This document shows positions 16,204 through 61,550 of a stretch of 64,000 nucleotides of DNA, in pieces. Position numbers and translations under genes: made by a program. Below the pieces are notes generated by a model. It searched no databases. It was not told the DNA's origin and worked only from the letters and a program-made list of their open reading frames with translations. Origin of the DNA: Chiloscyllium plagiosum (Eukaryota); the NCBI RefSeq assembly GCF_004010195.1, contig NC_057756.1, positions 2,342,007 to 2,406,006 of the forward strand, in the 5' to 3' direction. Every line of letters starts with the position of its first letter. Within the stretch, counting starts at the first letter, position 1.

Positions 16204-16224
16204 TTCTCAAGAACTGCAAGCAAT
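16204..16224 (+). pseudogene. 21-nt type A micro-exon (VLKNCKQ), probably decayed or stop-generating
   Basis: ggtttgtgtccttcag|TTCTCAAGAACTGCAAGCAAT|gtagga. It ends in T instead of G, so splicing to the 16648 exon gives T+AA = TAA. It lies 423 nt upstream of its B partner, like the other pairs. Confidence 0.5.
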
Positions 16225-16647
16225 GTAGGAGTTGTGAAAAAAAAGACGAACGTATGATCTCGTGGAAGATTATTCGGTGTGGTCTAACATTTCATCACTG
16301 TTCCCCTTTGGTATGATGCTGTTTAATGCATTTGATGTGGTCAATATTGTTTCTCAAATAAAAGAAACATCACTGATAACGGCAAAACGGCGCCTAATTC
16401 GAGGGATTATTAATTTGGGAAGAGTTGCTCAGTATTGGATAGTATCGTTAAGAAGCAGTGTGTTAGTGCATGCGACTTTCTAATCGGATAAGAAGTAAAA
16501 GAGGGAAAAAACACAAATGAGGTATAGGTAGAGCGACGTTTGTTTTTTGAAAACTGTCATTTTCAAATAAAGTCCTGTCCTTTAATTGATTTTAATATCA
16601 TTTTTACCTAGGAGATGAATTTCATAATGCTTTGCGTTTTCCTGCAG

Positions 16648-16668
16648 AATTGGCAAAAGAACAAGCTG
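16648..16668 (+). CDS. 21-nt heptad micro-exon, type B (ELAKEQA), with a GC donor
   Basis: tttgcgttttcctgcag|AATTGGCAAAAGAACAAGCTG|gcaagt: 21 nt, GC-AG type donor, peptide close to DLAKHQA and VLAKEQS. Confidence 0.65.
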
Positions 16669-17564
16669 GCAAGTACATATACGATATCATATTTCAGATA
16701 TTTACGTGCATGTTTGTGAAATTGTTACAGTTAGTGTGCAGCTTTATAACGTTGCCGTTGAGATGTTCACAGGACTTTCATTAATTTCTAATCAAAGTTA
16801 TGGAAGACAACATTGCCTTCAAATTCAAAATATGCAAATTCAGATAGTTACTCCCATATTAGTGAGACGTAAAATTTCATTATCATTCAGAATTTGACAT
16901 GATGGTATGTCAAAAAGGAAGGGAAGTGATAGTGAACATGATACAGCAAATACAAAGAAAAAGAGTAGTTATCTATAACAAATGCGAGTCCAGCGGGAGG
17001 AGAAAGTAAAGATAACTAATATATCAATAGAGGGATGTGCGAGCAGAATGCAAAGCTATTGCACCAGTCATGTTGTCTATCAGGCAAATACACGAAATTA
17101 TCACATCCACATTGACATACCAGATCATATGGTCAGAGTAGAACAACAACGCCTCATGGAAATACCAATGATTATATCACAAAGCACAGTCTCGAAACAT
17201 ATATGACAAGCCAACAGCTCGGGCTGCAAAGCAACAACCAAAATATTAGTCTCTGTAAATAATCTTTCGATCAGAAGTGACACTTGTGCCCTCTGTAGCT
17301 GAATGACGAACCTGGTGCACTTAGTATTAATCTGATCCGTGCTTAAGAACGCAAAAGCCAGAATTCAGTAATTAGGAATGCTGGCAGTATACACTTTAAT
17401 GTTTAAAGTCTCGCTGAATCAAATTGTGGATGACCCAAAGAAATCGTTCTGAGCGGTCAACCGGCAAAGGATGGTGAACAGATTAGATGTTGATAGAGAG
17501 CAGGAGTGAACTATAATGTGTCTATACTCATATAGCCTTCTGCACTGCAAAGTCATGGCGAATG

Positions 17565-18189
17565 GTATTGACCAGACCGACACATCAAAACACTTTTAAA
17601 AAGGCAGTCTTGAGCGTAACTTTGCTGTTTGTTTCAAGTAATTGTGTTGTGAATATTCCTGCAGTGAATCGGCTTGTGAGACTGCAGAGACTTAAACAAA
17701 CTGACCTTATGTACATAATTATAGATTGAAGTGCAACGAAACAAAAATACATCACCCGAAAAATATATCCTATCAAAACCCAACTGGCCATTCCGACTTA
17801 ATGATGCTTGTTTAAAATACTTCCAACAATCCTAATAAACAAACCACTTAGCACAACGAGTAAAGATGACACAAAAAGGTTACGGGTGACGAAGTCAGAA
17901 GTGCAGAACGAGGGAGACAGCGTTCAATTTTAATCAGATCCTTGATTCAACTCACAACCGAACTGAACTGACCTGACCAGTGGCAGAGCTAGCCACATGC
18001 CTTTTATTGTACCAATATCTGTTTTAAACACTTGACAGCTTTCTGCCTGAAGCATTATCTGTCAGGTATAAACCAAAGAGCCCCAATGAACCATTGGAAC
18101 TTCAGACATGATGAAACGCTGGGTCGTTTTTACCCAGCTAAAGTGAAACAAATGCAATACAATCTTGCAAAAGGACCCGATTTATAACA
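17565..18189. mobile_element. Solo LTR-like element
   Basis: Ends ...atttataaca. Shares motifs with 63287-64000 (same orientation) and 26640-27172 (opposite orientation). Left boundary approximate. Confidence 0.55.
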
Positions 18190-18739
18190 TGTTGAATATA
18201 TGGGCACTTTTTTCTAAGGTCACTATGAAATTGCATTAGATCATGCGAATTTGAATGAAGAAATCACCAATAGAGGTGAGAAATCGAGCAACCCGTGATT
18301 CTGGTAGGGCAATAACGGTGCCAGACCAGTTTGAAATTGGTAGTAACACACATGGAGACATGGCTGCATAGGAGAATGAATAGGGCATGAGATAATTTTG
18401 TGAGTAAGCAGAAGTAGGGTGTCCTTCCCATTAAAAGGAAAGGCAACATGTAGAGAAATAAAGGGCTTGCCCTAAGGAACTGCAAGACAGTGCAGGTCGG
18501 GAATGGTAGAGAAGGTGACAACACGTGACAGGCAGAGGACAAGATTCCGTATTTCAATGTAAAAATTGCAGTGAAGAGACATTGTGCACGAAACTGTCCC
18601 CACCCGGAGGGAAACTCTGAGGAAATGGGAAAACCGATCCTTAGAAGTCATGTAGGACGTATCACCCAACAACCACACGGGACGAATAGTCACCAATGAA
18701 AGTATATCCCCAGTTCCAGTGACGATCTTATGTATCCTT

Positions 18740-20335
18740 CGGAGAAAGTGCTAGAAAAGGCTAAAAGGTCTTAAAATTGATAAATCTCCTGGCCCCGATG
18801 GGCTACATACTAGAGTTCTGAAAGAGGTGGCTGAGGAAATAGCGGAGGCGTTGGTTGAGATCTTTCAAAAGTCATTGGAGTCAGGGAAATTCAGGGATGA
18901 TTGGAAGATCGCTGTTGTAACCCCCTTGTTCAAGAAAGGATCAAGACAATAGATGGAAAATTATAGGCCAATTAGCCTAACCTCAGCTGTTGGTAAAATT
19001 CAAGAATCCATCGTTCAGGATGAGGTTTCTAAATTCTTGGAAGAGCATGGTCGGATTAGAACAAGTCAACATGGATTTAGTAAGGGGAGGTCGTGCCTGA
19101 AAAACCTGTTAGAATTCTTTGAAGAGGTGACAGGGAAACCCAGTGAATGTGGTATATCTAGACTTCCAAAAGTCCTTTGATAAGGAGTCACACGGGAGGC
19201 TGCTGAGTAAAGTGAGTGCCCATGGTGTTCGAGGTGAGTTATTGGCATGGATTGAGGATTGGCTGTCTGACAGAAGGCAGAGAGTTGGGATAAAAGGTTC
19301 TTTTTCAGAATGGCAGCCAGTGACAAGCGGTGTCCCGCAGCGTTCAGTGTTGGGGCCGCAGCTTTAACGTTATATATTAATGATCTGGATGAAGTGACTG
19401 GGGACATTCGAGCGAAGTTTGCCGATGAGACGAAGTTAGGTCGACAGGCAGGTAGTACTGAGGAAGTGGGAAGGCTGCAGAAGGATCTAGGTAGTTTCAG
19501 AGAGTGATCCAGGAAATGGCTGATGAAATTCAATGTGAGAAAATGCGAGATCTTGCACTTTGGAAAAAAGAATAAAAGCATGGACTACTTTCTAAACGGT
19601 GAGAAAATTCATAAAGCCAAAGTACAAAAGGATCTGGGAGTGCTAGTCGAGGATTCTCTAAACGTAAACATGCAGGTTGAGTCCGTGATTAAGAAAGCGA
19701 ATGCAATGTTGTCATTTATCTCAAGAGGGTTGGAAAATAAAAGCAACAATGTGCGATTGAGACTTTATACAGCTCTGGTTAGGCACCATTTGGAGTACTG
19801 TGTCCATTTTTGTGCCCCACATCTCAGGAAGGACAAACTGGCACTGGAGCATGTCCAGCGGAGATTCATATGGATAATCCCTGGAATGTTAGATCTAACA
19901 TACGAGGAATGGCTGAGGATCCTCGGATTGCATTCATTGGAATTTAGAAGGTTAAGGGGTGATCTAATAGAAACTTACAAGATAATACTTGGCTTGGAAA
20001 GATTAGACGCTAGGAAGTTGTTTCCATTAGGCGAGGAGACTAGGACCCGTGGGCACAGCCTTAGAATTAGAGGGGGTCAATTCGGAGACATTTCTTCAGC
20101 TAGAGAGTGGTGGGCCTGTGGAATTCATTGCCGTGGAGTGCAATGGAGGTCGGGACGCTAAATGTCTTCAAGGTAGAGATTGATAAATTCTTGATGTCAC
20201 AAGGAATTAAGGGCTATAGGGAGAATGCGGGTAAGTGGAGTTGAAATGCCCATCAGCCATGATTAAAAGGCGCAGTGGATTCGCTGGGCCGAATGGCCTT
20301 ACTTCCACTCCTATGTCTTATGGTCTTATGGTCTT
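18740..20335 (+). mobile_element. CR1 LINE, 5'-truncated and relatively young
   Basis: ENYRPISLTS, QHGFSKGRSCL, KFADETKL, LRGDLIETYK; tail tcttatggtcttatggtcttat. Confidence 0.92.
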
Positions 20336-20439
20336 ATCCAGGAAATGCATGTGGGACATTTCAAATGAGGTAGGCAGACCTTTTGTGTTCAGTGGCCTCC
20401 CTAAAATGTTTTCCTCTGACACGTGAAGATCCCAAATAA

Positions 20440-21730
20440 CGTAAGGGATACTAAGCAAAAGAATCTATTCCCATTTGGAACAAAATGGTCTTATTAGTGA
20501 GAGGCGACACTGTTTTCTGCAGGGAAGGTCGTGCATAACCAACGTAATAGAATTATTGGAGGAAGTGACAAAGTTGTTTGATGAGGGTAGGGCTGTATAC
20601 GTGGACTTCAATACGGCATTTGTTAAGTTTCCCCATGGAAGGCTAATACAGAAAACAAAGTCGCATGGGGTCCATGGTGTATTGGCTATATGGATAAAGC
20701 TCTGGCTAAGTAAAAGGAGACAGAAAGTAGTATTGCAAGCGAAAATCTCAAAGTGTTCTTCTTCAATGTTCTTCTTCAATGACCAATGTTCTTCTTCAGG
20801 AATCCGTGCTGGGACCACTGTTGTTTGTGATATACATGAATGGTTTGGTGAAAAGTGCAGGTGGCCCGATTAATAAGTTTGCAGTTGATTTAACATTGGT
20901 GAAGTATCAGGTAGTGAAGATGAATGTCAGAGAATAGAGCAGTATGTAGATCGATTTGAGAATTGGGCAGAGAACTGGCAGTTTGACCAATCCATGAAAA
21001 TGCGAGTAGATGCCTTTTGGAAGATCCAATTCAACAACGTACCGTACAGTAAATTGAACGTCCTGGGGAAGATTGACATACAAAGAGATCTGGGTGTTCA
21101 GTTCCATTGTTCCCTGAAGTTGTCAACGCAATCAATAGAGTGGTCAAGAAGGCATGTGGCATGGTTTTGTTTCGTTGGACGTGGCATTGAGTGTAAGACT
21201 TGGCAGGCCGCACAACTGTCGTACAAGTAATTGATTAGGTCACGTTTGGAATATTGTGTACAGTTCTGGTCGCCACAATACCCAAACAATGTGGATGCTT
21301 TGCAGAGGTTGCAAAGAATGTTCACCAGGATGTTGCTGAGCATTGAGGGTGCTAGCTATGAAGAGAGGTTTAACAGATTAGGATTACTTTCAAGAAAAAT
21401 GATGAAAGTTGAGTGGGGACGTGATTCATGTCTACAAAATGCTGAGAGGTAGAGACAAAGTGGAAAGTAAGAATCTTTTCCCTTCCAGAGTAGGAGACTC
21501 AGTTATTGGGGTAACGAGATCAAAATTGGAGCAGAAGTGCTTAAGGGTGTCTGGAGGTGTTAGAGGCGGGCACAATAGCGTCTCTTAAGATGTATCCAGA
21601 CAGAAACATAAACAAACAGTAAAGAGAGGGAGACAGACCCTTAGAAAATAAACGACAGGTATGGATAGACGATCTGGAATGGTGCAGGATCGGACGGCCA
21701 AACAGCCTAATCCTGTGCTGTCGTTTTATT
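20440..21730 (+). mobile_element. CR1 LINE, 5'-truncated and decayed
   Basis: QGRSCITNVIELLEEVTK..VYVDFNTAF and LEYCVQFWSP. Confidence 0.88.
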
Positions 21731-22329
21731 TTTCATCTGAAAAAGCTACGTCAGATGGACAATGCTTTGCTGGGAGCTAGTCTGGCGATGGCATTTGGCG
21801 CTCTATCTTCCTGACTTTGAAAATGTATTCTTCTTCATACCTCTAAAATTGATTGTCTCAATGGTTTGTTGTTGTCTAAACATTAAATTTGATATCCTGG
21901 CACATAATTTATAACCCGATTGGTAGAAGTCGACGAGTTGTGAAGACGTTCCAAACAGAATTCAGGTATTTGTTTAACAACCAAATGTTATGCATTTTCA
22001 ATTTTCTGGTATAATTTTCTGTTTCTAGTCAGTCAGCTATAACTTCCAGATATTTTGGATGTGTTTATTATTGCCGCTATTCAATGTGTACACGTGGCAG
22101 CAAGAGAACATGTAATTGCCAACCGTGTTGAGTCTTTGTCAAACACGAAGGTGGCAAGAGTAAATAGACAGAAATAGCATGTAACATTGCAGGCTTTCAT
22201 TGGTATAGGAATTGTCAAGAATCTGTGTTGTAATGTACTAGCAAAGTAGGCCTACACAGTTTAAAATGAAGCCATATTGATATACTAATAATTAATAATG
22301 ATACTAGAGGTGGAGGGGTGATGATGATT

Positions 22330-25300
22330 GAACCAGCGGCCTGTCACGGAAGATGAATCACTAAGTTAGATCTTCTAAAGCTTACCTCGAGGATCAGGGC
22401 CATCCATTTCTGTTTCAGCAGCAGGATGAGCGGGAACTTCGACCAGTCGCTGGTCAGGAAAGGTGAGTCTTTACGTTAAATTATTAAAAGCTTACCTCGA
22501 GCATCAGAGACCTCCATTTCTGTTTTCAGCAGTAGGAAGAGCAGAAGCATGAACCAGGTGTATGCCTGGAAAGGTGAGTGAATAATTTAAATTTCCAAAA
22601 AATTGCCTCGAGCGTTGGAACCCTTCATTAATGCTTTCAGAAACAGGAAGACCGGGAGCTTGGACCAGGCGCATTTCGGGAAAGATGAGCCACTAACTTA
22701 AATATTTAAAAGCTTACTTCGAGCATCAGAGCCTTCCATTTATGTTTTCAGTAGCAAGAAGAGTGGGAGCTTGGACGAGGGGCCTGTCGGGAAAGATGAG
22801 TCATCAACTTAAATAATTAAAATCTACCTCATAGTGTAGAAGTGTCTGGGAAAAGAGGGACGATTTTCGCCCTCAGCCATGTAAGTGTGCATTTCTAGTG
22901 GAAGAAGGGAAAGGAGGAGAGTGTGAGTCATTAGCGACTCAATAGTTAGAGGGTCAGATAGAAAGAATATTGGGAACAAAAAAAACTCACTGCTGGTGTG
23001 TTGCCTAACAAGTGCCAGGGTCCGTGATATTTCATATTGCGTCTTTGCGAACCTGAATGGAAAGGATGACCAGCCCAAAGTCGTGGTCCACATGGGTACC
23101 AACTACATAGGTAGAAAGAGGGGTAGGGGTATAAGGCAGGCTTTCAGAGAGCTAGAGTGGAAGTTAATAGCTGGAACAAGCAAAGTTTCAATCTCTGGTT
23201 GCTTACCCCTGCCACGTGTCTGCAAATCAAAGAGCAGGGTGATATATCAGCTGAACACGTAGCTGCACACATGGCGCAAGAGAAAGGGTTTCAGACATGT
23301 GGAAAATTGGGGCTTATTCTGGAGAAGGTGGGACGTCTACAAACAGGATGGCCTTCACTTGAAACAAAGGGGTAAAAATATCATGCATGGGAAATTTGCT
23401 CGTGCCATTCGGGTCGGTATCGACTAGATCAAAAGGGGGATGGGAACCTGTGGAGTCCTTCCAGTACATAGTAGAATGTGAGTAGGCAGGACACGAACAG
23501 GATTTCATGGTCACATGAGAGTGCTGGCAGATAGCAAGCTGGTTTGTAGTGTGTCTACTTCAACGGCAGTAGTATCCAGAATAAGTTTCGATGTTGTGGC
23601 CATTTCTGGAGACATGGATAGAACAGGGTCAGGAATGGATCTTTTCCAGGGTTTAGGTGTGTCATTAAGATGAGGAAAGGCGGTAAAGGAGAAGGAGGTG
23701 TGGCTTTGTTTGACAAGGATAGTATAACGGAACCAGAAACAACTTCTGACCAGGATTAGTTTTTGACGTGGTATGGGGCGAAATGGAAACAGGAGAGCAG
23801 AGATTAAACTGCTGGGGGCTTTTTATAGGCCTCTGCAAGTTCCAGGGATATGGAGGAGACCATTGTCAAAACGATTGTGGGCAGGAATGAAAGGAGCAGG
23901 CTGGTTATTGTGAGCGACTTTAATTTTCCCAACATTGGCTCGAAATGCAGTAAATCTCATACGTCAGGTGTATGGGCTTCTGTCCAACGTGTGCAGGAGG
24001 GTTCCTGACACAACATGTAGAAGTGCCAACATCAGGAGACGCCATGCTGGATCTGATACTTTGTAATAATCAGGCCAGATGATTGATTTTGAGGTCGGTA
24101 ACCATAATTCTGTTACATTTACTTTAGCGATGGAAAGGGATAGGTACATCCCACATGGCAAGAGTTATATTGGGAAAGAGCGATTATAATGCGATTAGAT
24201 ACGACGTAGGTGACACAGATTGGTGTAGCAAAACGTAGGGGATGGGACAATCGAAATGTGGAGCTGGTTTAAGGAAGAGATATTGCGTGTCCTTGATAGG
24301 TATGCCCTTGTCAGGCAGGAAGAAAGTGATAAGGTAAGGGTACTGTGGTTTACTAAATAAATTGTGTCTGTTCTAAAGTAGAAGAGGGAGGTTCATTTGA
24401 TGTTAAGGTAGGATGGTTCAGATGAGGTGACGAACAGTTACAGATTAACTAGGAAGGATTTAAAGAGAGCGATAAGAGGAGCCAGGCGACACGATAGCTC
24501 AGTGGTCAGCGCTTCTGCCTCACAGGGAGCCCAGTTCAATTCAGTCTCGCTCGACTGTCGGTGTGAAGTTTCTGCATTCTCCCCGTGTCTGCGTGGGTTT
24601 CCGCTGGGTTGCCTTGTTTCACCCCAAAATCCAAATATATGGACGTTATGTAAATTGTAGATTTGGTGCATTAGTCAGAAGCAAATATCGGATTGGAGAA
24701 TGGGTCTAGTTGGTTTACTCTTCGGAGGATCCGTGTGGACTTGTTGAGGTGAAGGGCCTGTTTCCATGCTGTAGGGATTCTAATGTTAATTCTAAAGAGA
24801 AGTGTGAATGAATTTTCTTGAGCCGATAGAATACAGGAGAGCCCTCAAGCTTTCTATAAGTATGTTAGGAATAAAAGGATGACGGAGGTAGAAATAGGGT
24901 CAGTCAAAGACAGAAATGGGAAGTTGTCTGCGGACCCTGTAGATATCGGAGAGGTAGTCAACGAATATTTCTCATCTGTTTTAACTCAAGGAACGGAGAA
25001 TATTTCAGAGGAGAAGACTAAGATACTGGCTATTAGGCTATAAATGATTGAGGTTAGTAAGGAGGAGATGTTATCAATTCTAGAAGGTGTGAAAATCGAT
25101 ATGTCCCCTGGGCCGGATAGGAGGTATCCAAGGATTCTCTGGAACTTAGGGAAGCGATGTGGAGCCTTTGGTCTTTGCGTCATCACTTTCTTCAGGGCTA
25201 GTACCACAGGACTGGAGAATTGCAAATGTTGTGCCCTTGTTCAAGAAGGGCAGCAGAGATGACCTAGATAATTATAGATCAGTAAACCTTCCATCTGTTG

Positions 25301-26605
25301 GAGGAATAGTTTTGGAAATGATTCTACGAAAAAGGTTTTATAAGCATGTAACAAAGAACAATTTGATTGAAGATAGTCAGCATGGTTTCTTGAGAAAGTG
25401 ACCAAGCATGTGGATGAGGTAAAGACAGTTGACGTCGTGTACATGGACTTCAGAAATGCCTTTGATACGTTTCCACATGGGAGGCTACTGGAGAAAATGC
25501 AGAGGCATGGGATTGATGATGATTTAGCAGTTTGGATTAAAAACATTCGGCAAGAAGTCAAGGAGTGTTGGCTAATGGAAAATATTCAGCCTGAAGTCCG
25601 GTTATTCGTGGTGTGCCACAGGACCTGCTTTGGGACCACTGTTGTTTGTCATTTTTATAAATAACTAGCATTCAGGCAAAGATGGAAGGATTAGAAATAT
25701 TGTAGATGACACTAAATTCATGGGAGTGGTGTACAGTGTTGAAGAATGTTGGAGGTTGCAGGGGGGCGTGGATACGCAGTAAAATTGGGTCTCAGAGGTT
25801 TAAAATGGAATTCAGTGCAGATAAACGTGAGGTGATTCGCTTTAGGAAGACTAACAGGAAGGCAGAATACTGGTGTTATAGAAAAGTCTTGGAATAGTAG
25901 TGTGGATGTGCAGAGGGATCTTGGTATCCATGTACATAGACTCCTGAAAGATGCTACCCAGGTTGATAGTGCTGTTAAGATTGCATACGATGTGTTAGGT
26001 TTCATTGGGAGAAAGATTGCGTTTCGGAGACGTGATATCATGCTGCAACTGTATAAAACACAAGTGCAGCCTCACTTCGAATTTTATGTACAGTTCTGGT
26101 CGTTCATTACAGGAAGGATGTGGAAGCATTGGAAAATGTGCAGAGGAGATTTTCCAGGATGGTGCCTGGTCTGGAGTGAAAGCTTAATGAGTAAAGGCTG
26201 AGGTACTTTGGTCTGTTCCCATTGGAGAGAAGAAGGCTACGACGGGATTTAATATGGATATGCAAGATGATCAGAGGATTAGATATGATGGACAGTGAGA
26301 CTTTTCCTAGGATGATTATTCTGGCTTTTAGGAGGGGGCATACCGGTAAACTGAGGGACGATAAATTTAAGATAAATGTCAGAGGCAGGCATTTTACTCA
26401 GACAGTGGTAAGGGCATGGAATGGCCTGTCTGCCACTTTAGTTAATTCAACCACATTACGTACATTTAAAAAGTAATTGGATAAGCATATGGATGATAAT
26501 GGAATAGTGCCGGGGAATGGGCTTAGATTGGTTCACAAGTCGGTGGAGCATAAGTGGTTCAATTGCGGGTTATGCGCTGTATTTTTCGATTTTCTATGTT
26601 CTATT
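22330..26605 (+). mobile_element. Near full-length CR1 LINE (5'UTR tandem repeats, ORF1 esterase, APE, RT), decayed
   Basis: About 4 copies of a ~120-bp unit at 22370-22830; SGNH-esterase motifs (VCCL..ARVRD, VVVHMGTN); RT motifs; ttctatgttcta tail. Confidence 0.9.
24482..24790 (+). mobile_element. tRNA-derived SINE (HE1-like) nested in CR1
   Basis: tRNA-like head ggcgacacgatagctcagtggtcagc..gcctcacag, central gtgtgaagtttctgcattctccccgtgtctgcgtgggtttcc, CR1-like tail gaagggcctgtttccatgctgtagggattct. Confidence 0.8.
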
Positions 26606-26639
26606 AACATGGTTAATTAGCCGTTGTTCTTTTAAGAGT

Positions 26640-27172
26640 TCTTAATGGCAGAATTGCTCCAATTCCTTGGAGAACACTGGTTTTACAATGGCATGGGAGT
26701 GGTCAGTCCTCCCAGTTCAGGCATTTCTTTTTTCTTTTCGTTTTAGCAGAGAATGTCCTAGTAACGAACAACGAGAAGCAGCTGTATTCCAGAGAAAGCT
26801 TGCAAGTTTCTACTTGACTGACCTCTGTCTGTGTAATGGCCCCTGCCTCAAAGGAACTGTATTCGAATTTACCCTTTGCCAAGGGGCGTTTTTAGGACTG
26901 TTACGTGAATTGAAAAACTCCGCAGTTAAATTGTTATATCAAATAGGTTGGGTTATCAAATTCTTAATTTGTTTTTTTTTCCTCTTTTTTTGGTGTTTCA
27001 ACTGTGGTATTGAAATAAATGCTGCTTTGTTCAAAGCCGAGACGTTTGAACAGCTGTATCATTCCTGGACTATCCACTGTACATCTTTATTTAAAATAAA
27101 ATAAAATAAACTTCGGGTCTCAGTTGACTTCTTAGAATGTTTTGAGGGGGTCTGGTGTGATGCATAAAAACA
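26640..27172. mobile_element. Solo LTR-like element
   Basis: Ends ttttgagggggtctggtg...aaca; reverse-orientation relative of the elements at 17565 and 63287. Confidence 0.55.
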
Positions 27173-50876: not shown

Positions 50877-51306
50877 GTGCAGGTTTGAGGTTACTCCCTT
50901 CTTCAAAAAAAAAACAATTAGCTGCTTGTGTTTTATCTTTTCTGTCAATCATGGTATGTCAACAACATTTACAGTCGACATTTGGCTCTGAAGCTGATGA
51001 TTGGAACCACCGTTGAAACGTGTTAAACACTCTACATTGTTCACCCAACAGAGTCTTGTTGATCTCTCAGCATCCGAGTTCCTTCAATGACTCCCTCGCT
51101 AAACGTACATTCCAAAATAGTTGTTTTATTAAAAGTATTCCTAAAGATTACAAGGTAGCTCTTACACTTCAAAAGAATAGTGTTTTAATTATATTTTGTT
51201 TTGGATTTTTTGTCTCAAATATGTAAGCCAATCTACGTTTTGGCTTTAGTCCTTTCTTCCCCTAAAGGGTGCACTTCCTCTGCCATACATAAAATGATTA
51301 TATTTG

Positions 51307-51327
51307 AATTGACAAAGCATAAGCCTA
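51307..51327 (+). pseudogene. Decayed type B micro-exon (ELTKHKP) with splice sites lost
   Basis: aattgacaaagcataagcctaagtacat aligns with the 16648 exon plus its intron start (aattggcaaaagaacaagctggcaagtacat). No AG acceptor and no donor at position 22. Confidence 0.4.
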
Positions 51328-51769
51328 AGTACATCATTCTGATATTAGTAAACTATGTACTCAATTTTTATTTCAATTGATTGAATCCAATCCATACATT
51401 TAATGACTTGCAAGTTAATATTTAATTACCTTTGTGAAATTTAATTTGTTTAAAAATAATGTGCAATATTGAATTGTTTCCAGTTCTGGTTTCATAATTC
51501 TTTGTAGTTCTGGATGAATTTAACTTTGTTTTTAATGAGAATATCAGATGTTGCGATTGCATGCTTTTCATAAAAGTTCATTGTCAAAAAAAAGAGAACG
51601 CCTTAACGTCAGTAACTACAGTTACTTCAGAAAATAGTGCGAAGTAGAGATTATATGTCGATTTATTTTCGTTGTGTTTTTCCTGTTGTGAAACGGTTTT
51701 GAACTATGATTCTGTGTTCCTTTCTGAGAAAACAAACAAAGAGATGGCCTTGTCACTTGTCAACGATAT

Positions 51770-51950
51770 GCAGCTGACTCACCAATGTCCTTGATGGACG
51801 GAAATTGCTGTCATTATCAAACCTGGCCTACATGCGACTCCAGTTAGACAGCAATATTATTGGCTCTTCACTCACCTCCAGGCAGGTAGGGATAATCAAT
51901 AAATGCTGGCAAGTCAGTGACGCCCTCATCCCGTGATTGAATACAAAAAA
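51770..51950 (+). mobile_element. DeuSINE (SacSINE/AmnSINE-like) fragment
   Basis: Deu-domain-like ctcaccaatgtcctt..ggaaattgctgtc..tggcctacatgcgactccag and tail aataaatgctggc..gacgccctcatccc..aaaaaa. Confidence 0.6.
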
Positions 51951-51989
51951 TAGAAAAAAGGGATTCTATTTTTCTATGATTACACATAG

Positions 51990-52013
51990 AATTCCGAAAA
52001 CAAACTTCAAAAG
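51990..52013 (+). CDS. Candidate 24-nt phase-1 micro-exon (EFRKQTSK)
   Basis: tttttctatgattacacatag|AATTCCGAAAACAAACTTCAAAAG|gtaacg: in frame, but not 21 nt. Confidence 0.3.
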
Positions 52014-52344
52014 GTAACGTCTTTAAACATTTTTTTTGTTTCCAGGAAGTCGATCTTTTTTGTTGTGATACTGCATATTGCTAACATTAACCCGCAATTT
52101 CATGAGATCATTTCTTTCTATCTCGCTCTTCTGATACTCCACTGCCAATGTGGGTCGTCCCAAATAAGAATAGCCGATTCACTGTTTAAATGGCAAATTT
52201 ATAATCTTAATTTTAATTCCCTATGTCATTTTAATTCTAACCTTTATGATTCTTTATCCATTTTAGAGCTATGACAAAAGACAGTTTTTTCTGAATTTGA
52301 CTCGCTTTAGTTCAAGAACAGTTGGCTTTCATATCATGGAGGGC

Positions 52345-53430
52345 GGAACTGAGGAGTGCAGACGTTGGCCATCGTAGTCAAACAAATGTGGTGCTTTTAA
52401 AGCACAACACGTCAGGCAGCATTCAAGAACCACGAGAATCGAAGTTTCAGGTGTAAGCTCTTCTTCAAGAATGTGAGTAATTAATGTGGCTGAGAGAAAA
52501 AGGATGCTGAACGTGGAGCTGGGGAAGAGGCACCTGGAAAGGCGTTAGAATGATTCGGATGGTGGGGGCGGGGGATGGCAATAGATCAGAGTAGACAATG
52601 GAGCGAATATGTGGGAAGGAAGATGAGGAGTGAGGACATTTAAAGATGGCAGTTCTACATTGGATGGTCGGATCTGCATGAGATGGTAGAGGGGAGAAGC
52701 AAAATTGTGAAATCGACAGTGATATCGAGTGGTTTGAGAGTCACAAGATAGAAGATGAGGCCTTCTTCCCCCAAATGATTCGTGACTTAAAGTTGGCGTG
52801 AAGGAAGCCCAGGACATGCATTTCTTGGCGGATTGGTCGGAGCTGTTGATGTAATCAGTCACAGTGTGTTGAAGTTGTTTCGTGCATGTGTCCCAGAGAT
52901 ATTCCCTGAAATGGTCGGTCAGTTGGCGGCCTGTCTCGCCAGTGGAGTGGAGACCAAATCTAGAGCAACTGACACAGTAGATGGCGTCTCTGCATGTGCG
53001 GCAAAACCTCTTATGGATGTGAAAGCATCCTTTGTTGCTTGGATGGAGCTGAGGCGGGAGGTATGTGTGCAGGTTTTACACCTCGTGTTTTATCAAGGCA
53101 GAAGTTGAAGCATTGTTTCTCCTGGCATCCGGTGGCTTGGATTTGGCAGTGGACAAGGCCTTGTCCTACATTCCCCCTTCCTTCAAAACTATCCACTCTA
53201 CATTCTCCTCTGAACTATCACCATCATGGCCCACCTGCATCTATTTAACTTTTTTTCCCAGCTACTTTCCAGCAAATCCCACATTCCCCGTCCTATTTAA
53301 TTTCAGTCTCCTTTCCTCCCCTAAATTTCCAGTGAAGTGCTTCTGCCAAAAAAGTCAATTCTCCTGCTGCACCGATGCTGCCTGAACAGTTTTGATTTCA
53401 TATCGCCACATTTTTCGACTCTTTCATAGC
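52345..53430. mobile_element. Degenerate Penelope-like fragment, inverted
   Basis: pLTR-like ends in opposite orientation; GIY-YIG-like sequence on the minus strand. Confidence 0.65.
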
Positions 53431-53602
53431 ATGGTACCAAATCCAAATTATCCAGACTTCCTGGCTAGCTACAACAAGTCATGGGTTAATTTGCAAATCT
53501 GCTAATTTAAAATCTCCTTTTCAGAGATCTAATTTTGAACTTAATTAACACAATCTTCAATTAGGAATAAGTTCTCTTTCTAACAGGGTGAAGAAACTAC
53601 CA

Positions 53603-54891
53603 GAAACTGAAACAACTGATCAGCGGATCCAGATAATCTATACAATCAACACAGGAATTCTTGGACATCATCAGAAATATACACATAGACAAGGAAGAAA
53701 CGATGGTTTCATTCGACGTAACAGCACTGTTCACCTCTATTGACAAAACCCTAGCCAGAGAAACAATAGCCAACCTGCTGGACATACAGAACAGACAACA
53801 GGACGTGGAACCTATCAACAAAGACGGCATACTTAAACTACTGGACTTGTGCCTCACAACACACTTCACATTCAACAACCAGATATACGAACAAATCAAC
53901 GGAACACCCATGGGCTCACCGATCTCTGGACTCATAGCAGAAGCAGTAATGCAAAGGTTAGAACAAACAGTCTTACCACAAATTCAACCCAAACTCTGGG
54001 CCAGATATGTGGATGACACCTTTGTAATCATTAAATACACAGAAATAGAGAAAACACACCGGACCATCAACGCCACACTAACAGGAATCCGATTCACGAT
54101 AGAAGAAGAAAAGGGTAACCAACTCCGATTCCTAGACAGATGGTACAGAGAACACCGAACGGAGAATTCACCACAAAGGTATACAGGAAAGCCACACACA
54201 CAGACCAAGTCCTGAACTATGAAAGCAACCACCCCAACACACACAAACGACGTTGCATCAAGACACTATTCAAAAGGGCCACAACACACTGCAGCACACT
54301 AGAACTGCAAAAAGAGGAAGAGGAACACCTGTACAAGGTATTTGCCAAAAACGGATACCCGCGCAATTTCATCAACAGATGCCTAAGAGAAAGACAACGG
54401 AACAAGGACACGCTGTAGTGGACTTTATATTGGGTCCAGGTCGATGTGTTTGTTGGTGGTGTTTGTGGATGAGTGCCATGCTTCTAGGAATTCTCTGGCT
54501 GTTCTTTGTTTGGCTTGCCCTATAATGGTAGTGTTGTCCCAGTCAAATTCATGTTGCTTGTCGTTGCTTGCATTATAGGGCAAGCCAAACAAAGAACAGC
54601 CAGGGAATTCCTAGAAGCATGGCACTCATCCACAAACTCCATCAACAAACACATCGACCTGGACCCAATATACCGGCCACTGCAGCGGACAGCTGAAACT
54701 GACAACCGGAAGCGGCAGGGACAGGCCACTATAAATGCCGGAGGAAACACCATAGAAGCGCTTCACAGGAGGCTTCCAAGCACTGAGGATGTCACCTCGA
54801 CAGGGGACGAAACGATTGCAACAAAAACTTCCAGCTCGGCGAACAGAACCACAGCAACGAGCACCCGAGCTACAAATCTTCACCCAAACTT
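53603..54891 (+). mobile_element. Penelope-like (Poseidon-type) element: RT plus 3' end, with an internal inversion/deletion
   Basis: VSFDVTALFTSI, YEQINGTPMGSPISG, RYVDDTF, VYRKATHT. 14-bp TSD tgaagaaactacca (53589-53602, 54892-54905). Inverted segment at ~54415-54570. Confidence 0.93.
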
Positions 54892-55377
54892 TGAAGAAAC
54901 TACCATTCAATGTCGCCAATAGTTTGGCGAACTAAAGTTTAAGCAGTTCTTCTAATGCTGCTTTTTCCAGGCAGTTCAAATATCAGGTTAGTTCACATAG
55001 TTTGAGAAGATTTTATATACTTTGTTTTACGTTTCTCACTTTGAAAACGATTGTTACCTCACAAACGGAATTTTCAGTTGCTTTGACCTCTTGAGGTGCA
55101 CAGAATGACAGAGATTAAATAGTACATTTAAGCATTATGTGCATTCTACTTTACTTTACCTTTTTCCGAGAAAGTGAACGAATTTTCATAATTGATTTAC
55201 TTTTCATGACTCTCAGCTGATGTTATTGGATGTCTTTATTGTTATACTTGTATTGTGTAGTTTAAACTATTTGTTCATGTTTCCGACGTTGTTGCAACTC
55301 ATCATGATTACGTTGTCATTTGGAAAATGATGTTCAAATAACGTTAAATGTTTACTTTTTCCATTCGGGCCTTTCAG

Positions 55378-55398
55378 AACTTACGAAATGCAAAGAAG
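55378..55398 (+). CDS. 21-nt heptad micro-exon, type A (ELTKCKE)
   Basis: ttccattcgggcctttcag|AACTTACGAAATGCAAAGAAG|gtgagc: 21 nt, phase 1-1. Confidence 0.82.
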
Positions 55399-55804
55399 GT
55401 GAGCTTTTAAAAATAAAAGCTCAATGTTGACGAGGAGTTAGCATACTTCAAATGTTAGAAGAAACATATGCCAATTGCAATGATTAATAGAGTCAGTGCT
55501 GCATTATATCTTCAAGGAAAATTCAGCTTCAATCAAAGGAAGTACGTGGGGAATAACAAACGACTATAAAACGTCAAATATCAAAGATGCTGCAAAATTG
55601 AAGTAAATAGACAGTACGACGAATATCCCTGATAACGATATGCTTGGCAAGGGGAAAAATGTAAAATTTGTCGATTAATATAGTTAAAATTTCAGCCACG
55701 AATGTAGTGTTTCATTGCTCAATTTTTGAGTGCTTAGCGTTGCCTTATTTCGTTTGTGATTTTTAGAAATAGACTTTTTCATCAAGGTCTACTTTGTCCT
55801 GCAG

Positions 55805-55825
55805 ATCTAGCGAAGCACCAAGCAG
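55805..55825 (+). CDS. 21-nt heptad micro-exon, type B (DLAKHQA)
   Basis: ctactttgtcctgcag|ATCTAGCGAAGCACCAAGCAG|gtaaag: 21 nt, phase 1-1. Confidence 0.82.
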
Positions 55826-57021
55826 GTAAAGAGAAAATGATGATCAAGGTGTTAGTAGACGTGTCCAAAACAGGAATTCCCACATTTTTTTCTTATTCAG
55901 TGCTTGCATTTCAATTGACAGGACGAAATATTATTTCTTCATCATGACAATTTATCGATGAAGTTTGAAAGAAGTTTGTATTTGTTCATTTAGCCAATGT
56001 ATCTTTCTGTAAACGTTTCGTTTTCTCGCTAGGTGACATCATTATTGTCATCTCTGATAAGGTGTTGAGTATCTGCTAAATAACTTATTTTAAAGCAAAC
56101 CATTCTAGGGCAACGAGGGTTGGACATTATGAGTTTCAAAGACACGATAATGAATAAACCATGCAGAAAAATATATAAACACACCCCAGATAAAAATTGA
56201 AAGAGAAGCAATATTTAACCAATTGCAATACTGCAGCTGAATGATCTTAGTGACATGTCGGAGCAACCATCAGAAAAAGGAACGTATGTTACTGAATGAT
56301 TAATCAAAATATTTAGTGCCATCAGTAGACTTTGTTCTTGGTAAAAAATGTAAATGCTGCAAGGAATGTCTCTGCCTATTTACATAATGCTGCGTGTGAA
56401 GTACCGAGAAATGCTTCACATAGCCATAGTTTTCTCCTGCTGTCGGACACTTTTTTGGAAATATGGCAATAAGAAATAATAACGGGTCGATATTGCTATA
56501 AGGTCTTTTATTAAAAATGTTAAGAAATTGAAACATTCTGACAACAGCAAGATCTTACCTAATACAGGCTGATGAACAAGGATAATAGTGAAGAGACTAA
56601 CAGCATCAGAAATGCGTTACACGTAAAATGTAGACCGTCCCTCAAACATAATTATGTTAATGACGATGTTGAATTAAAGTTTTCTCCTCCAATGAATTGC
56701 GATGGTCATGAACAGATGATTTACTAATCAACTTAGAGGGAGTCCACAACTCTGAAATGGATGTGAGCTTTACAGTTGTGGCAAATACACTCGAGGCAAA
56801 TTTAATAAGAATTGTTGTAATTGTTTGGAACTCACAGTCCAGAACAAGCGCGAGTCTACAATTAAACGTTTTTTTGCTTCTGGAAATTCCTTTCAGAACA
56901 GGATGTTTATGAAGATTTCACAATTCCAAACTCCAAAACCTCATGCCCCACCAACTCCTCTTGATTACAGAAATGTGTGCTACAATTCACAGTTCAATGA
57001 TTTTCCCTTTTCGTTCTTTAG

Positions 57022-57042
57022 ATCTCAGAAAATATAAAGGAG
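57022..57042 (+). CDS. 21-nt heptad micro-exon, type A (DLRKYKG)
   Basis: ttttcccttttcgttctttag|ATCTCAGAAAATATAAAGGAG|gtgaga: 21 nt, phase 1-1. Confidence 0.82.
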
Positions 57043-57421
57043 GTGAGACCTCTAAAAAATGCGTCTAATAGATGTACAAATTTACAATTTGAAATGTTTA
57101 CTCAATTTCTGGCTAATTATTGCATTGGGACCGCAATGAAGAATGAATGTGCCAGCATTTTGACAAACAATTACTTTCCCCAGTGATATTGATGAATGCA
57201 CAAATGCGTAGAGGGATTGACTTTATGATAAAGACAGAAGATAATGCATGATCATAAATTTCATGCATTATTTAGTTGAAGTGTCAGAAAAAAATGGAAA
57301 CGAGACATCAGATATGCATTGGTTGATTAACATATATCCCCTGTTGACTCAATACGGATGAGCACTGCTATTTCTACAAATGCAGGACAGGACAATTGAC
57401 CAGTACTTGTTCCCAAACCAG

Positions 57422-57442
57422 ATCTTTCCAAGTACCAAGAAG
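57422..57442 (+). CDS. 21-nt heptad micro-exon, type B (DLSKYQE)
   Basis: cttgttcccaaaccag|ATCTTTCCAAGTACCAAGAAG|gtaaga: 21 nt, phase 1-1. Confidence 0.8.
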
Positions 57443-57959
57443 GTAAGAACACTTTAAAAAAATGTGCGATGTCAAAGAGTATCTTTCTAACATTACGAGG
57501 AATAGAAGTTTTCACAAACATCCTCCAGATTTGTGTTGTTACTGAATGCTTCCAAATTCGTTTGCCAAATGCATTATTTCTTTGATAAGCTGGACAATTC
57601 AGCCTGCATGATATTTGCGTTTTCTTGCTGAAAAAAAATAATTCTTCTATTATCGAGACAGGTAGTGTTCCTCACCCTAAACGCAAAGTTAAAAAAAAGG
57701 TTATGGTTCTGAATTCATACATAAAACTATCTGTAACAGCCAGTGTTCTCATTCCTCAATTAGTGTTTTCTTTACAAATGGACATGTCTGAATTATATTC
57801 TACGAACTTTGAATGAAACTTTTGACTGGACATCATCGGAGTGGGTATCCAGGTAAAGATGCCACCACGATAGAACAATGCACATAGCTAGAAACGATAA
57901 ACTGCTTAAAGTATCGTTGGAAAGATAAATACTTAGCTAGTTAGGTAGACTCACATACA

Positions 57960-57961
57960 TA

Positions 57962-58013
<52 letters not shown>

Positions 58014-58030
58014 TACATACATATGCATGC
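57960..58030. repeat. (TG)n(TA)n microsatellite
   Basis: Direct reading. Confidence 0.9.
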
Positions 58031-58129
58031 AATCAATGCAGAGAGAGAGGTAAATTATAGGTATAAACAAATAATGCCATTTTACATGACGAGCCAATGT
58101 TAATGATGCAACACATGGGAAATCATGAG

Positions 58130-58935
58130 TTTTGAAAAGATTTGTAGTTCAGGTTGAGGTTCTGGTTTATGTTTGCTCACTGTGCTGGAAGGTTAATTGT
58201 CAGGCGTTTCGTCACCATGCTAGGTAACATCTTCAGTGAGCCACTGGATGAAGCACTCGTGGTGCAGCTCTTCTTTTCTATTCATATGTTTGGTTTTACT
58301 TGCTATGGGCATGTCACGTCCTGTAATGGCGTCGTCTCCTATGGTGATCTAACTTATTGTTCTTTTTCTCAGGGGAAGGTAAATGGGATCAAAGTCAATG
58401 TGTTTGTTCCAAGAATTCCAGTTGAAATTCTTGTGTGTGTCTCTGTATGGCTTGTCCTGGGATGGATGTGCTGTCCCAGTCGAAGTGGTGTTCTTCTTCA
58501 TCCGTATGGATGTACACTAGCGAGAGTGGATCATGTCTTTTCTTTGTGGCTGGATGATGTTCATGCATCCCTGTGGCTATTTTTCGGCCTGTTTGTCCGA
58601 TGTCGTGTTTGTTACGGCTCTTGCAAGGTACTTAGTAAATAACATAATGAGATGAATTTGGAAGAGCCGATATTGACAACAAGCAAAACTAAAGTTATTT
58701 GCAAACTACATTGCAACAACTGTAGAAAACACAACAATGAACAAACAGGCTAAAAACTAGCCACCAAGATACATGAACATCAACTAGCCACAACTAGATA
58801 TGACTCAGTCCCACTAGTATCCTTACAAATGGATGACAAAGGATACCACTTGGACTGGGACAACACCTCCATCCTAGGACAAGCCAAAAAGAGACATGCC
58901 CGAGAATTCCCAGAAGCATGGAATTCCAGCCAGAA
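58130..58935. mobile_element. Older Penelope 3' fragment with an inverted copy
   Basis: Minus-strand pLTR/GIY-YIG at 58130-58640, followed by a plus-strand copy of the same region at 58660-58935. Confidence 0.8.
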
Positions 58936-59659
58936 ACCGTGTAATCTTGTAATTACTCCGCAGAATTAAAAAGCAGAACTGAGCTTGTCACATTTGTTTA
59001 TGACTTGATTATCGAGATATATTTCAATTCATTGAAATGGCATGGAAATAAGAATATTCCTATTGTATCATACACTTATAGTCTGCAAAGATATGGGGGA
59101 ATGAAGTTGCATTTGCAGAGAGTGATTGTGAGTGCACTAACCACGGTTAATCACCTTCTGAGTCAAAATACAAATGAAAATAAAATGTGTATCATGAATA
59201 TTTTCTTACGTTCGTGAAACTGATACTCTTCATTATTTCTCTTAATGAGTGCGGGGTAATCGACTATTGTATTGCGTTTAAAACACATTTCTCTCTTGGT
59301 CCTTCGAAACAAAGTAAGCAACAAGAAAATAAGCGTTGGAGAAACTGTGTTGGTGGAGTTCAAAAATACGGTGCGATGATGTTTACATTCCTTAATCTAC
59401 TAAATTACAATTGAGGGCAATTATTCACTATTGGGTGATGAAATATTGTATTTTAATTTGGGACTCTAAAAATGAAGATATGTTTGTAAGGTGTTTTGAA
59501 AAAGTGCTGTACTGCTGCAATGGCACAGCGTTATTACAGACAAAGTGCATTTTTCAGGCAGGAGAGACAAAGGGAGAGATTGCAGTTTTTACAAAGGTAA
59601 CCAATGAAGTAATCACAGTAAAAGGGAAAGTGAGAAAGATAACGTAGGGAAGTGATTGA

Positions 59660-60520
59660 GCCATACAGTCAGATTGCTGCAGCACGGAGACAGGCCTTTC
59701 AAATCAAATCGTTCCATACTAGCCAAAATGTCCATCCACAGTAACAACATTTCACTGGATTGGTCCAAATCATTCGAATAATTCCTATTCATGTGTTTTT
59801 CCAAATGCATTTTAAATGTTGTTAATGCACCCCCCACCTCACCACGTCTGCTGTCATCTAATTACACCTGCGCACCACCCTCTGTTAAAAAAAAGTCTCT
59901 GAGTTTCCCATTTATTCTTTTCCCACTAACCTTAAACTGATGTCCTCATGTCTTCGATTCCACAATGCTTGAAAAACCACTAAGTGCATTCACCCTATCC
60001 ATGCCTCTCATCATCTTATAACCCTCTGTAAGATCCCTCCTCAATCTCAAAACGTCTAACTTGTCCAAAATGTCCCTAAATCTCAGATAATTGAGTCCAG
60101 GCAACATTTGAGTAAAATTTTTCTACCATGTTTCTGTAGCATCCCTCATATGGCAAGATGACCTAAAGTGAACACAACCCTCCAAATTCAGCCTCAAAAC
60201 GTCCTGATAAACAACAGTATAAATTCCCTACGTCTATATTCACTGCCCTGACTGATGAAGGCCAGTGTGCCAAAAACCTTTTTTCACTACTCTCTCGACT
60301 ATTGACTCCACTTTCACAGAAGTGTGAACGTTTACCCCGATTCCTTCTTCTCTACTGCACTCCTGAAGTCCTGATTTTAAGGTTATTATCAAACTTATTA
60401 ATCATGCCTTGTACATTCTTATCCAAATTTATGTTTGTAGATAACAAACAGAAGTGGGCTCAGCCTCGATCCCTGAAACACTCCATTAGTCAGGGGCCTG
60501 CAGTGCAACAAGCATGATTC
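59660..60520 (-). mobile_element. Decayed CR1 3' portion
   Basis: 3'UTR motif (cagcacggagacaggccttt) and the ORF2 C-terminus on the minus strand. Confidence 0.75.
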
Positions 60521-60756
60521 CACTTGAGGAAATTTTGGCATCATCCGAAATGAAGTAGTTCCTTTGGAAACTGACATAACTGTATGATATTCTAATGATT
60601 TATACCAATTTTATAGTCAATGATATGCGAATTATGAGGCATTTCATTCCAATTTCTATGTAAAACACGAGATGATTGAAACAAAATGCCAAATCAATTA
60701 GTCTTTGAAGTAATAACTTATGCTAAATTTTAAACTTTACCCAATATTCACCACAG

Positions 60757-60777
60757 ATGTAAAGAATTTAAAAGCAG
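60757..60777 (+). CDS. 21-nt heptad micro-exon, type A (DVKNLKA)
   Basis: ctttacccaatattcaccacag|ATGTAAAGAATTTAAAAGCAG|gtgtgg: 21 nt, phase 1-1. Confidence 0.75.
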
Positions 60778-60968
60778 GTGTGGGATTCAATGAAATAATT
60801 GTAAACATCTGCAAATCAAACGAACCGTGTTTAAATTATTTCCAACAGGACTCATGATGAATTGGATAGTAATAACTTGTGATCATATGAACAGGAGTCC
60901 TGAGTATGTTTATTTACTTCAACATCACACACACATAAACATATATGTGTGTATGCACATATAGAAAT

Positions 60969-61052
<84 letters not shown>

Positions 61053-61082
61053 CAGACAGACATACAGACAGACATACAGACA
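60969..61082. repeat. (GATA)n/(GACA)n microsatellite inside the intron of the last exon pair
   Basis: Direct reading. Confidence 0.95.
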
Positions 61083-61308
61083 TGATTGCAAGTTCCATAC
61101 ATTGTTAAGATAATGTAGGAAACTGATTTCATTAATGTTCTACTTTGTTCAAAGTGTTTGGAAATAAATCAATCGCTCTAATGTGACAGTCAATCTACCC
61201 ACGATCTACCCATCTGTGATTGCTTCCTTTGCATTTTTTTAAAAATTGGAATTGCTTTAATAAGAAGTTGCTTACAAAAGAAGAATGACAATTGCTTTTA
61301 CCACGCAG

Positions 61309-61329
61309 TTCTTGCAAAGGAACAATCTG
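61309..61329 (+). CDS. 21-nt heptad micro-exon, type B (VLAKEQS)
   Basis: ttgcttttaccacgcag|TTCTTGCAAAGGAACAATCTG|gtaagg: 21 nt, phase 1-1. Confidence 0.8.
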
Positions 61330-61403
61330 GTAAGGATAATTGCAATATTGTAATCTGTCTACATGTTCTTTCCTGACTATGTGTTTTCCGGTTTTCTGTT
61401 TAG

Positions 61404-61423
61404 AAACATTGGTTGACAAGGAG
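61404..61423 (+). CDS. Candidate penultimate micro-exon (ETLVDKE, 20 nt)
   Basis: ttccggttttctgtttag|AAACATTGGTTGACAAGGAG|gttagg, after a 74-nt intron from 61329. An alternative donor at 61434 would give 30 nt. Confidence 0.4.
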
Positions 61424-61520
61424 GTTAGGATATGTAAGACATTTGTAATAATTTGTCATTTAAAAAGTTCTCATATGTCCACAAGTCTTTAATGTACAAG
61501 GAATCCTTTTTATGTCGCAG

Positions 61521-61550
61521 AACAATCAATATTATCACCTTTCAAAGTAA
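61521..61550 (+). CDS. Candidate terminal coding exon (NNQYYHLSK*)
   Basis: cctttttatgtcgcag|AACAATCAATATTATCACCTTTCAAAGTAA, in phase 0 after the 20-nt exon. AATAAA motifs occur downstream (~61938, ~62201, ~62276). Confidence 0.3.
   Translation, partial: NNQYYHLSK

Follow-up and report, generated by a model that had tools for sequence, protein, structure and literature searches.

Results

Heptad exons of the window

The window analysed here is a 64-kb stretch of the Chiloscyllium plagiosum genome (contig NC_057756.1, hereafter C47, positions 2342007-2406006), which contains on its + strand ten exons of 21 nucleotides (nt), each encoding one heptad of a predicted helical rod. Positions inside the window are counted from its first base, and signed positions (− or +) are relative to the window start. 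The window has a G+C content of 40% and three runs of N, and it belongs to an assembly of 3.56 Gb in 101,977 contigs. As the array of heptad exons begins upstream and continues downstream, the entire window (1..64000, + strand) is array body, either intronic or exonic. It is likely that the window lies inside a very large + strand protein-coding locus, the coding body of which is a run of these 21-nt heptad exons.

The ten exons had been proposed in a first-pass annotation made from the sequence alone, and all of them were found on the + strand behind a pyrimidine-rich tract and AG, with GT following nine of them and GC following the exon at 16648. Every exon of the array measures exactly 21 nt, and base 3 begins its only open frame. 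Two bases ending a codon are followed by six codons and by one base that opens the next, which gives intron phase 1 on both sides, and because of this any subset of the exons joins in frame, each adding exactly one heptad. The array alternates between type A exons with the consensus xLKKCKE, in which codon 5 is often Cys or Tyr, and type B exons with the consensus xLAKEQA, so that a 14-residue super-repeat results.

The first exon of the window is a weak type A copy ending in T (16204..16224; 9.6 bits, the lowest exon-content score of the ten), which is separated by a 423-nt intron from a type B exon with the GC donor (16648..16668; 18.3 bits). The type A exon at 42700..42720 is an exact match of the patterns used in the genome-wide searches described below, and its type B partner (42822..42842) lies only 101 nt downstream. 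A type A exon with Cys at codon 5 (55378..55398), which is a pattern match and lies within a single-copy DNA contig, is followed after 406 nt by a type B exon (55805..55825) that is likewise covered by a contig of the DNA run. The type A exon at 57022..57042 has Tyr at codon 5, and the exon placed 379 nt after it (57422..57442) occupies the B position as a KYQ variant, matches the pattern and is also covered by a DNA-run contig. A type A variant that matches the pattern (60757..60777) and a type B exon (61309..61329) are separated by an intron of 531 nt. A simple repeat at 60959-61088 lies inside this intron and makes it the longest of the short A-to-B introns.

From 42700 onward, the eight exons join without a stop in the frame given by the first-pass annotation. 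When 16204 is joined directly to 16648 an in-frame stop (T|AA) is formed, so that these two exons are excluded as coding neighbours. Since this junction gives a stop and 16204 is also the weakest copy, 16204 is probably a decayed or skipped exon.

A comparison with the minus strand and with random sequence was carried out using a crude criterion, which asked of each AG-N21-G[TC] site that its upstream tract be at least 60% pyrimidine and that the exon be free of stops, begin with a hydrophobic residue and have K as its third. Sites of the form AG-N21-G[TC] with at least 60% upstream pyrimidines numbered 75 on the + strand of the window and 92 on the − strand; the full criterion was passed by 8/75 and 0/92 of these, respectively, and by a mean of 0.87 sites (maximum 5) in 200 first-order Markov sequences. 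The eight passing sites were seven of the ten annotated exons and a site at 22209 (IVKNLC), which failed the exon-content matrix described below and was dropped. The matrix scan and a scan for exons of other lengths found no further heptad exons in the window besides the ten.

The exons had been described in the first-pass annotation as lying outside recognisable repeats. The exon-bearing DNA is single-copy, contigs of the DNA run covering 54869-55900, 56031-57012 and 57074-57852 at a depth of about 13, and no exon is overlapped by a reverse-transcriptase open reading frame (ORF). Reverse-transcriptase ORFs are present in the window at 53637-54212 and 35494-35991, and Pfam scans of ORFs showed that the introns of the array carry many reverse-transcriptase fragments. 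Very high-copy dispersed repeats occupy 45755-48358, 53567-55519 and 58124-60727, where the word depth in the DNA run reaches about 1.2 million; these repeats also draw single-cell RNA reads at 95-99% identity. One of the N runs (46353-47090, 738 nt) leaves room for one hidden heptad exon. A contig of the DNA run bridges from 46098 to 47324 with 8 other letters in place of this N run, and the assembly gap, which lies within repeats, may be shorter or different in the individual used for the DNA run.

Extent of the array

Heptad exons were read in a total of about 359 kb, made up of a contiguous 314 kb (the window with 100 kb upstream and 150 kb downstream, −100000 to +214000) and sampled 10-kb pieces further downstream. 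This gave 43 exons read in sequence and a further nine placed by pattern, all on the + strand of C47. The main array spans at least 432,260 nt (C47:2301254-2733513, window −40752 to +391487), about tenfold the size implied by the limits of 16204 and 61550 that were first assigned to it. The contiguous 314 kb contains 33 exons between −40752 and +195515. Further + strand exons of the main array were read in the sampled pieces at +225616, +228806, +300710, +373438, +383784, +388588, +391027 and +391487, and others were placed by pattern match alone at C47:2586356, 2603719, 2630678, 2678813 and 2690709.

An exon-content matrix was built from the heptad exons themselves and applied to every AG-N21-GY site in the 314 kb. 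At a threshold of 6 bits or more it gave 33 sites on the + strand and one on the − strand, and at 10 bits or more 32 and none. As the matrix was trained on the same exons, the splice signals, selection, open chain, genomic uniqueness and unit structure of the array serve as the independent tests.

Six further exons with a 'KCQ' variant were found on the same strand of C47 at 3401130, 3410541, 3454636, 3457107, 3777777 and 3798334, all as pattern matches, two of which were read in sequence. They form two groups (C47:3401130-3457127 and 3777777-3798358), 0.7 and 1.05 Mb past the main array. Because no heptad pattern match occurs on C47 between 2.73 and 3.40 Mb, these groups are probably separate, smaller arrays or genes.

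Genome-wide searches were made with several patterns. The first five placed 7 of 75 (control 30), 9 of 14 (control 13), 21 of 67 (control 26), 10 of 53 (control 42) and 11 of 22 matches (control 11) on the + strand of C47. A sixth pattern, allowing at most one mismatch, gave 509 matches (control 171), and among the 100 listed 14 of the 19 exact ones were on the + strand of C47. None of the matches listed fell on the minus strand of C47, and a pattern wrong by one base gave 66 matches in the genome (control 38), none of them on C47. The heptad motif is thus essentially unique to the C47 locus within the 3.56-Gb genome. A small unplaced contig (C62610:507-958) carries the exon pair +70840/+71267 a second time, inverted and likewise spaced by 427 nt, and is probably an uncollapsed haplotype (haplotig).

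Splice signals

Splice signals were compared between 41 array exons and the other AG-N21-GY sites, the exon score having used only AG and GY. The donor sequence GTRWG was present at 28 of the 41 exons and at 128 of 3389 other sites (Fisher p 2e-29), and the 20 nt upstream of the exons had a mean pyrimidine content of 0.71 compared to 0.47 elsewhere. The acceptor was CAG in 37 of the 41 exons. When the matrix was run with the splice requirement removed, AG and GY accompanied 31 of 57 matches on the + strand and none of the 16 on the − strand.

Ordinary exon definition requires exons longer than 21 nt, and most introns of the array are of kilobase length. We know of no comparable run of consecutive 21-nt exons across introns of 1-38 kb in vertebrate genes, although no search aimed at it was made. 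The acceptors were found to be modestly enriched in UGC, with UGCAG at 13 of the 37 array exons with CAG compared to 92 of 971 background CAG sites, and TGC within 18 nt of the acceptor at 20 of 41 exons compared to 30% of pyrimidine-rich CAG sites (p 0.016). UGC between the branch point and AG is typical of SRRM3/4-dependent micro-exons (bioRxiv 10.1101/2024.09.17.613571). The array exons resemble these micro-exons of neurons and endocrine cells in being far below exon-definition size and in having strong core splice sites with UGC near the AG, whereas SRRM3/4 micro-exons are single, alternatively used and set in ordinary genes, and here the whole coding body would consist of micro-exons. Recognition of an SRRM3/4 type is offered as a lead only, the enrichment being modest and the copies sharing ancestry.

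Coding constraint

Pooled Nei-Gojobori comparison gave a ratio of nonsynonymous to synonymous differences per site (pN/pS) in the proposed frame of 0.40 for type A (21 exons) and 0.53 for type B (21 exons), compared to 0.95-1.81 in the other two frames; the exon pairs are non-independent and their divergence is near saturation, so that these values indicate a direction and not a rate. The positional entropy was lowest at second codon positions (0.81), followed by first (1.13) and third positions (1.26). The array exons are therefore under codon-level constraint. Exons of the same type share a mean identity of 65% (256 pairs), while their 147-nt flanks align like random DNA, with local scores of 13.1 and 11.4 compared to 10.6 for random sequence. 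Similar exons in unalignable flanks indicate that the duplications are old and that nothing but the exons with their splice signals has been retained.

Unit structure

The introns of the array fall into two size classes. The 13 introns leading from a type A to a type B exon had a median of 445 nt, with eight of them between 101 and 531 nt, while the other 19 introns had a median of 5434 nt and a maximum of 37,630 nt (Mann-Whitney p 2.7e-4). Short A-to-B introns set between long ones point to a two-exon unit of growth, in which a type A exon, an intron of about 400 nt and a type B exon would have been duplicated in tandem, with exon copies born and lost thereafter. A search of the 314 kb for heptad-like exons of other lengths returned one candidate on the + strand and two on the − strand, from which none was considered real.

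Predicted product

The chain of 32 exons from the contiguous sequence, with 16204 left out, is open for 224 residues and contains no proline and two glycines. Its composition is 24% Lys, 14% Glu, 12.5% Ala, 10% Leu and 9% Gln, its hydrophobicity peaks at a period of 7.0, and 42 pairs of opposite charges are spaced i/i+4. A hydrophobic residue (Leu, Phe, Met, Val or Ile) occupies codon 2 of the heptad in 29 of 32 exons, and Lys fills codon 4 in 26 of 32. At codon 5, 12 of the 32 have Cys or Tyr and 11 have Glu. The product is most likely an alpha-helical, leucine-zipper-like coiled coil that forms a proline-free rod of at least 224 residues. It has in common with leucine zippers and tropomyosin a Leu every seventh residue, the lack of proline and the many i/i+4 opposite charges, and differs from them at the second core position, where no more than about half of the heptads carry a hydrophobic residue. 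Cysteine recurs at one core position about every 14 residues, and in a parallel dimer these residues could form a ladder of disulfides, only within an oxidising compartment.

Search for receptor domains, gene ends and transcripts

The first-pass annotation had interpreted the exons as the cytoplasmic tail of a B7/butyrophilin-family receptor. A Pfam scan was made of 393 ORFs, comprising 136 from the window (both strands, at least 80 residues) and 150 and 107 plus-strand ORFs from the flanks. The flank scope was −100000 to +214000, with ORFs of at least 60 residues taken in the last 30 kb. Outside the scan lay 164 minus-strand ORFs of the −100 to 0 and +64 to +164 kb flanks, all minus-strand ORFs of +164 to +214 kb, ten plus-strand ORFs and one minus-strand ORF straddling the borders, and 27 downstream ORFs of 60-79 residues. 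None of the 393 ORFs matched V-set, C2-set, PRY or SPRY, and the only matches were to reverse-transcriptase fragments. Upstream of the first heptad exon, no V-set exon was found in plus-strand ORFs of at least 80 residues as far as −100 kb, a region that includes two N runs of 3.1 and 3.8 kb (about 7 kb together). The hallmark pattern of an immunoglobulin (Ig) V domain was absent from both strands of the 314 kb. A strict scan for a transmembrane exon gave no candidates, and a loose scan gave 81 on the + strand compared to 111 on the − strand, which is the level of noise. No gene end was recognised by a CpG-island scan or among terminal-exon candidates after +195515.

Genome-wide profile searches were also made, in which the best 150 candidates were scored for each profile (V-set 150 of 1319, SPRY 150 of 293). 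Among these, C47 had a single SPRY match (4577660) and a single V-set match (10206275). For the CD80-like C2-set (PF08205), 12 of 145 genome matches among the best 150 candidates fell on C47:5694633-10208040, and the nearest such B7-type IgC match to the array (C47:5694633) follows the last known heptad exon at a distance of about 1.9 Mb. The V-set exon at 10206275 adjoins the C2-set match at 10208040, and the contig of the heptad array carries at C47:5694633-10208261 what looks like a region rich in the B7 family. Of the 150 SPRY matches scored, the majority were located on another contig (C37) at about 9-34 Mb, with about ten C2-set_2 matches among them, and this region is probably the large TRIM/butyrophilin B30.2 cluster of the species.

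Two single-cell poly(A) RNA runs were searched over 42500-62000 of the window. The first gave reads on dispersed repeats only, 626 of 675 being just 95-99% alike, and the second gave none. The fractions of the two runs that were read were about 2 and 6 in 100, and the exons of the window would lie hundreds of bases from the 3' end of a transcript.

Discussion

Comparison with BG genes and butyrophilins

The BG genes of chicken span only a few kb, and the heptads of mammalian butyrophilins are encoded by 21-nt exons. A search of the literature for runs of 21-nt heptad exons found only papers on chicken BG, and a search combining butyrophilin, heptad and shark found nothing. To our knowledge no other vertebrate family has runs of phase-1 21-nt heptad exons. 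According to two of the BG papers (PMC5938342, PMC4046983), chicken BG genes have 27-38 exons of 21 nt that encode one heptad each with a 1+2 codon split, and these follow signal, IgV and transmembrane exons. Exon number varies by duplication and loss, and the encoded tail is predicted to be a dimeric alpha-helical coiled coil. The papers found describe tails with one heptad per exon for the BG/butyrophilin group only, and they treat long tails of the BG type as a peculiarity of birds of unknown origin. The hydrophobic a/d positions of BG correspond to codons 4 and 7 of the exon (PMC5938342). Butyrophilins have a few cytoplasmic heptads between the transmembrane segment and B30.2 (PMC4046983), and their number is described in PMC12841164 as variable across jawed vertebrates, cartilaginous fishes included.

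The array shares with chicken BG1, BG8 and BG13 a long run of 21-nt exons, the coding of one heptad per exon, the 1+2 codon split and a comparable number of exons (27-38 in BG, 33 in the contiguous part of the array), and it resembles them also in gaining and losing exons by duplication and loss and in a product predicted to form a helical coiled coil. This likeness is drawn from exon architecture and not from sequence comparison. There are also clear differences between the two. The signal, IgV and transmembrane exons that directly precede the heptads of BG were not found between −100 and +214 kb, and the hydrophobic residues are at codon 2, plus codon 5 in alternate exons, instead of codons 4 and 7, so that the register of BG is absent. 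The array further differs in its strict two-exon (14-residue) super-repeat, in the 432 kb of its main part and in introns of up to 37,630 nt. Heptad repeats that vary in number are likewise shared with the butyrophilins and their relatives (BTN1A1, BTN3A1, MOG and ERMAP), whereas these have an IgV and IgC ectodomain and usually a B30.2 domain after a few heptads, compared to at least 43 heptad exons here. Of the receptor proposed in the first-pass annotation, the hidden array of phase-1 heptad micro-exons was thus recovered, while the receptor part was not, as Ig, transmembrane and B30.2 exons were not found in the sequence searched. The locus may be likened to a BG tail in the way it would work, and its membership of the BG/butyrophilin family is held as a tentative minority view.

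Interpretation of the array

The explanation that would leave no gene at all is that the exons are chance matches, or belong to a dispersed repeat family carrying AG-21-GT. Sequence rich in A and G makes lysine- and glutamate-like codons common, and purine-rich chance matches do occur on the minus strand, but this explanation was refuted by the strand asymmetry of 33 to 1, the enrichment of splice signals (p 2e-29), the genome-wide confinement of matches to one strand of one contig and the single-copy depth in the DNA run, and its probability is negligible. A more substantial concern is that the array is dead or dying, a once compact heptad tail inflated by transposons, from which a functional mRNA is no longer spliced. 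Decay of part of the array is indeed seen from the stop at 16204|16648 and from at least five copies lacking AG or GT, in the right frame and on the + strand, at window +176246, +184311, +185594, +186385 and +187495; such copies indicate a birth-and-death turnover of the array. Reverse-transcriptase fragments abound in the introns, and no RNA reads were found on the exons, although the 3'-biased single-cell data provide no test. A dead array would lose its splice sites and frame at the rate of its introns, and yet 42 of the 43 sequenced exons still have AG and GY, read open and form stop-free junctions, within flanks that have diverged beyond alignment, and pN/pS is below 1 in one frame only. 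Death of the whole array is accordingly regarded as improbable.

What remains is the kind of protein that such an array would encode. A more specific form of the coding-locus reading is that the array is the cytoplasmic tail of a BG-type B7/butyrophilin receptor, in which case the rod would act like a BG tail, as a dimerising stalk of variable length. The 21-nt size, the 1+2 split, the heptad coding and the exon number match chicken BG as described in PMC5938342 and PMC4046983, heptad-variable butyrophilins are reported in cartilaginous fishes (PMC12841164), and C47 is rich in B7-type Ig exons with one V-set and one SPRY match among the best 150 candidates of each search. Set against this, the scanned ORFs from −100000 to +214000 and on the minus strand of the window yielded no V-set, C2-set, PRY or SPRY, the 314 kb contain no IgV hallmark and no credible transmembrane exon, and the hydrophobic register is unlike that of BG. 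The Ig and SPRY matches on C47 (best 150 candidates) are separated from the last known heptad exon by 0.8 to 6 Mb, and no listed heptad match falls in C37 at about 9-34 Mb or in C47 at 5.7-10.2 Mb, the sole match on C37 being at 2.2 Mb. A BG-type receptor is possible on this evidence, but doubtful. The other candidate is a giant modular coiled-coil or single-helix protein with no Ig domain (cytoskeletal, secreted or a stalk), in which heptad micro-exons would have arisen independently of BG and the butyrophilins. The sequence examined, which lacks Ig, transmembrane and B30.2 exons, and the uniqueness of the exon consensus to the C47 locus are consistent with such a protein, and a Cys about every 14 residues would be more in keeping with interchain disulfides, formed under oxidising conditions, than with a tail in the cytoplasm. 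The literature on 21-nt heptad exons nevertheless concerns BG only, and no other vertebrate family of this kind is known to us; a non-Ig protein is considered rather unlikely.

Several observations weigh against the general reading of the window as part of a very large spliced coding locus, and the decay just described is one of them. Neither a first nor a last exon was recognised, nor a start or a stop codon, and because the ends of the gene were not seen, that the array is one gene spliced into one mRNA is something we infer. The assembly also has gaps, which account for 11,018 letters of N in the contiguous 314 kb. The single-cell runs contained no exon joints over the window, in data that are 3'-biased and to which 21-nt pieces are hard to align. 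The splicing machinery has difficulty with 21-nt exons in succession that lie 1-38 kb apart, and the limits of pN/pS given above belong here also. With regard to the product, the core is weak, the second core position usually being Glu in type B heptads, and would also fit a single charged helix. One firm core position per heptad, with a hydrophobic partner three residues further on only in every second one, suggests either a weak dimer or a leucine-striped, charged single helix.

Implications

It is a serious, if not yet favoured, possibility that this shark gene, or small tandem family spread over 1.5 Mb, is the longest known vertebrate run of consecutive micro-exons, with fifty or more 21-nt heptad exons separated by kilobase introns and encoding a helical rod punctuated by Cys. 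Annotation methods based on ORFs, and many based on alignment, are blind to such a gene. The locus would be a natural test case for the definition of 21-nt exons by the spliceosome when dozens of them follow one another and the introns between them reach 38 kb, and for the evolution of coiled-coil length by gain or loss of phase-compatible exons. With the exon grammar of BG on a vastly larger scale, it also offers a handle on the origin of this design. One option is that the array represents a deep ancestor of the avian BG tail, which, if true, would move the origin of the BG type to the base of the jawed vertebrates; the other is that the same modular design was invented independently on a non-Ig protein. 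Either would need a dedicated recognition of 21-nt exons across long introns.

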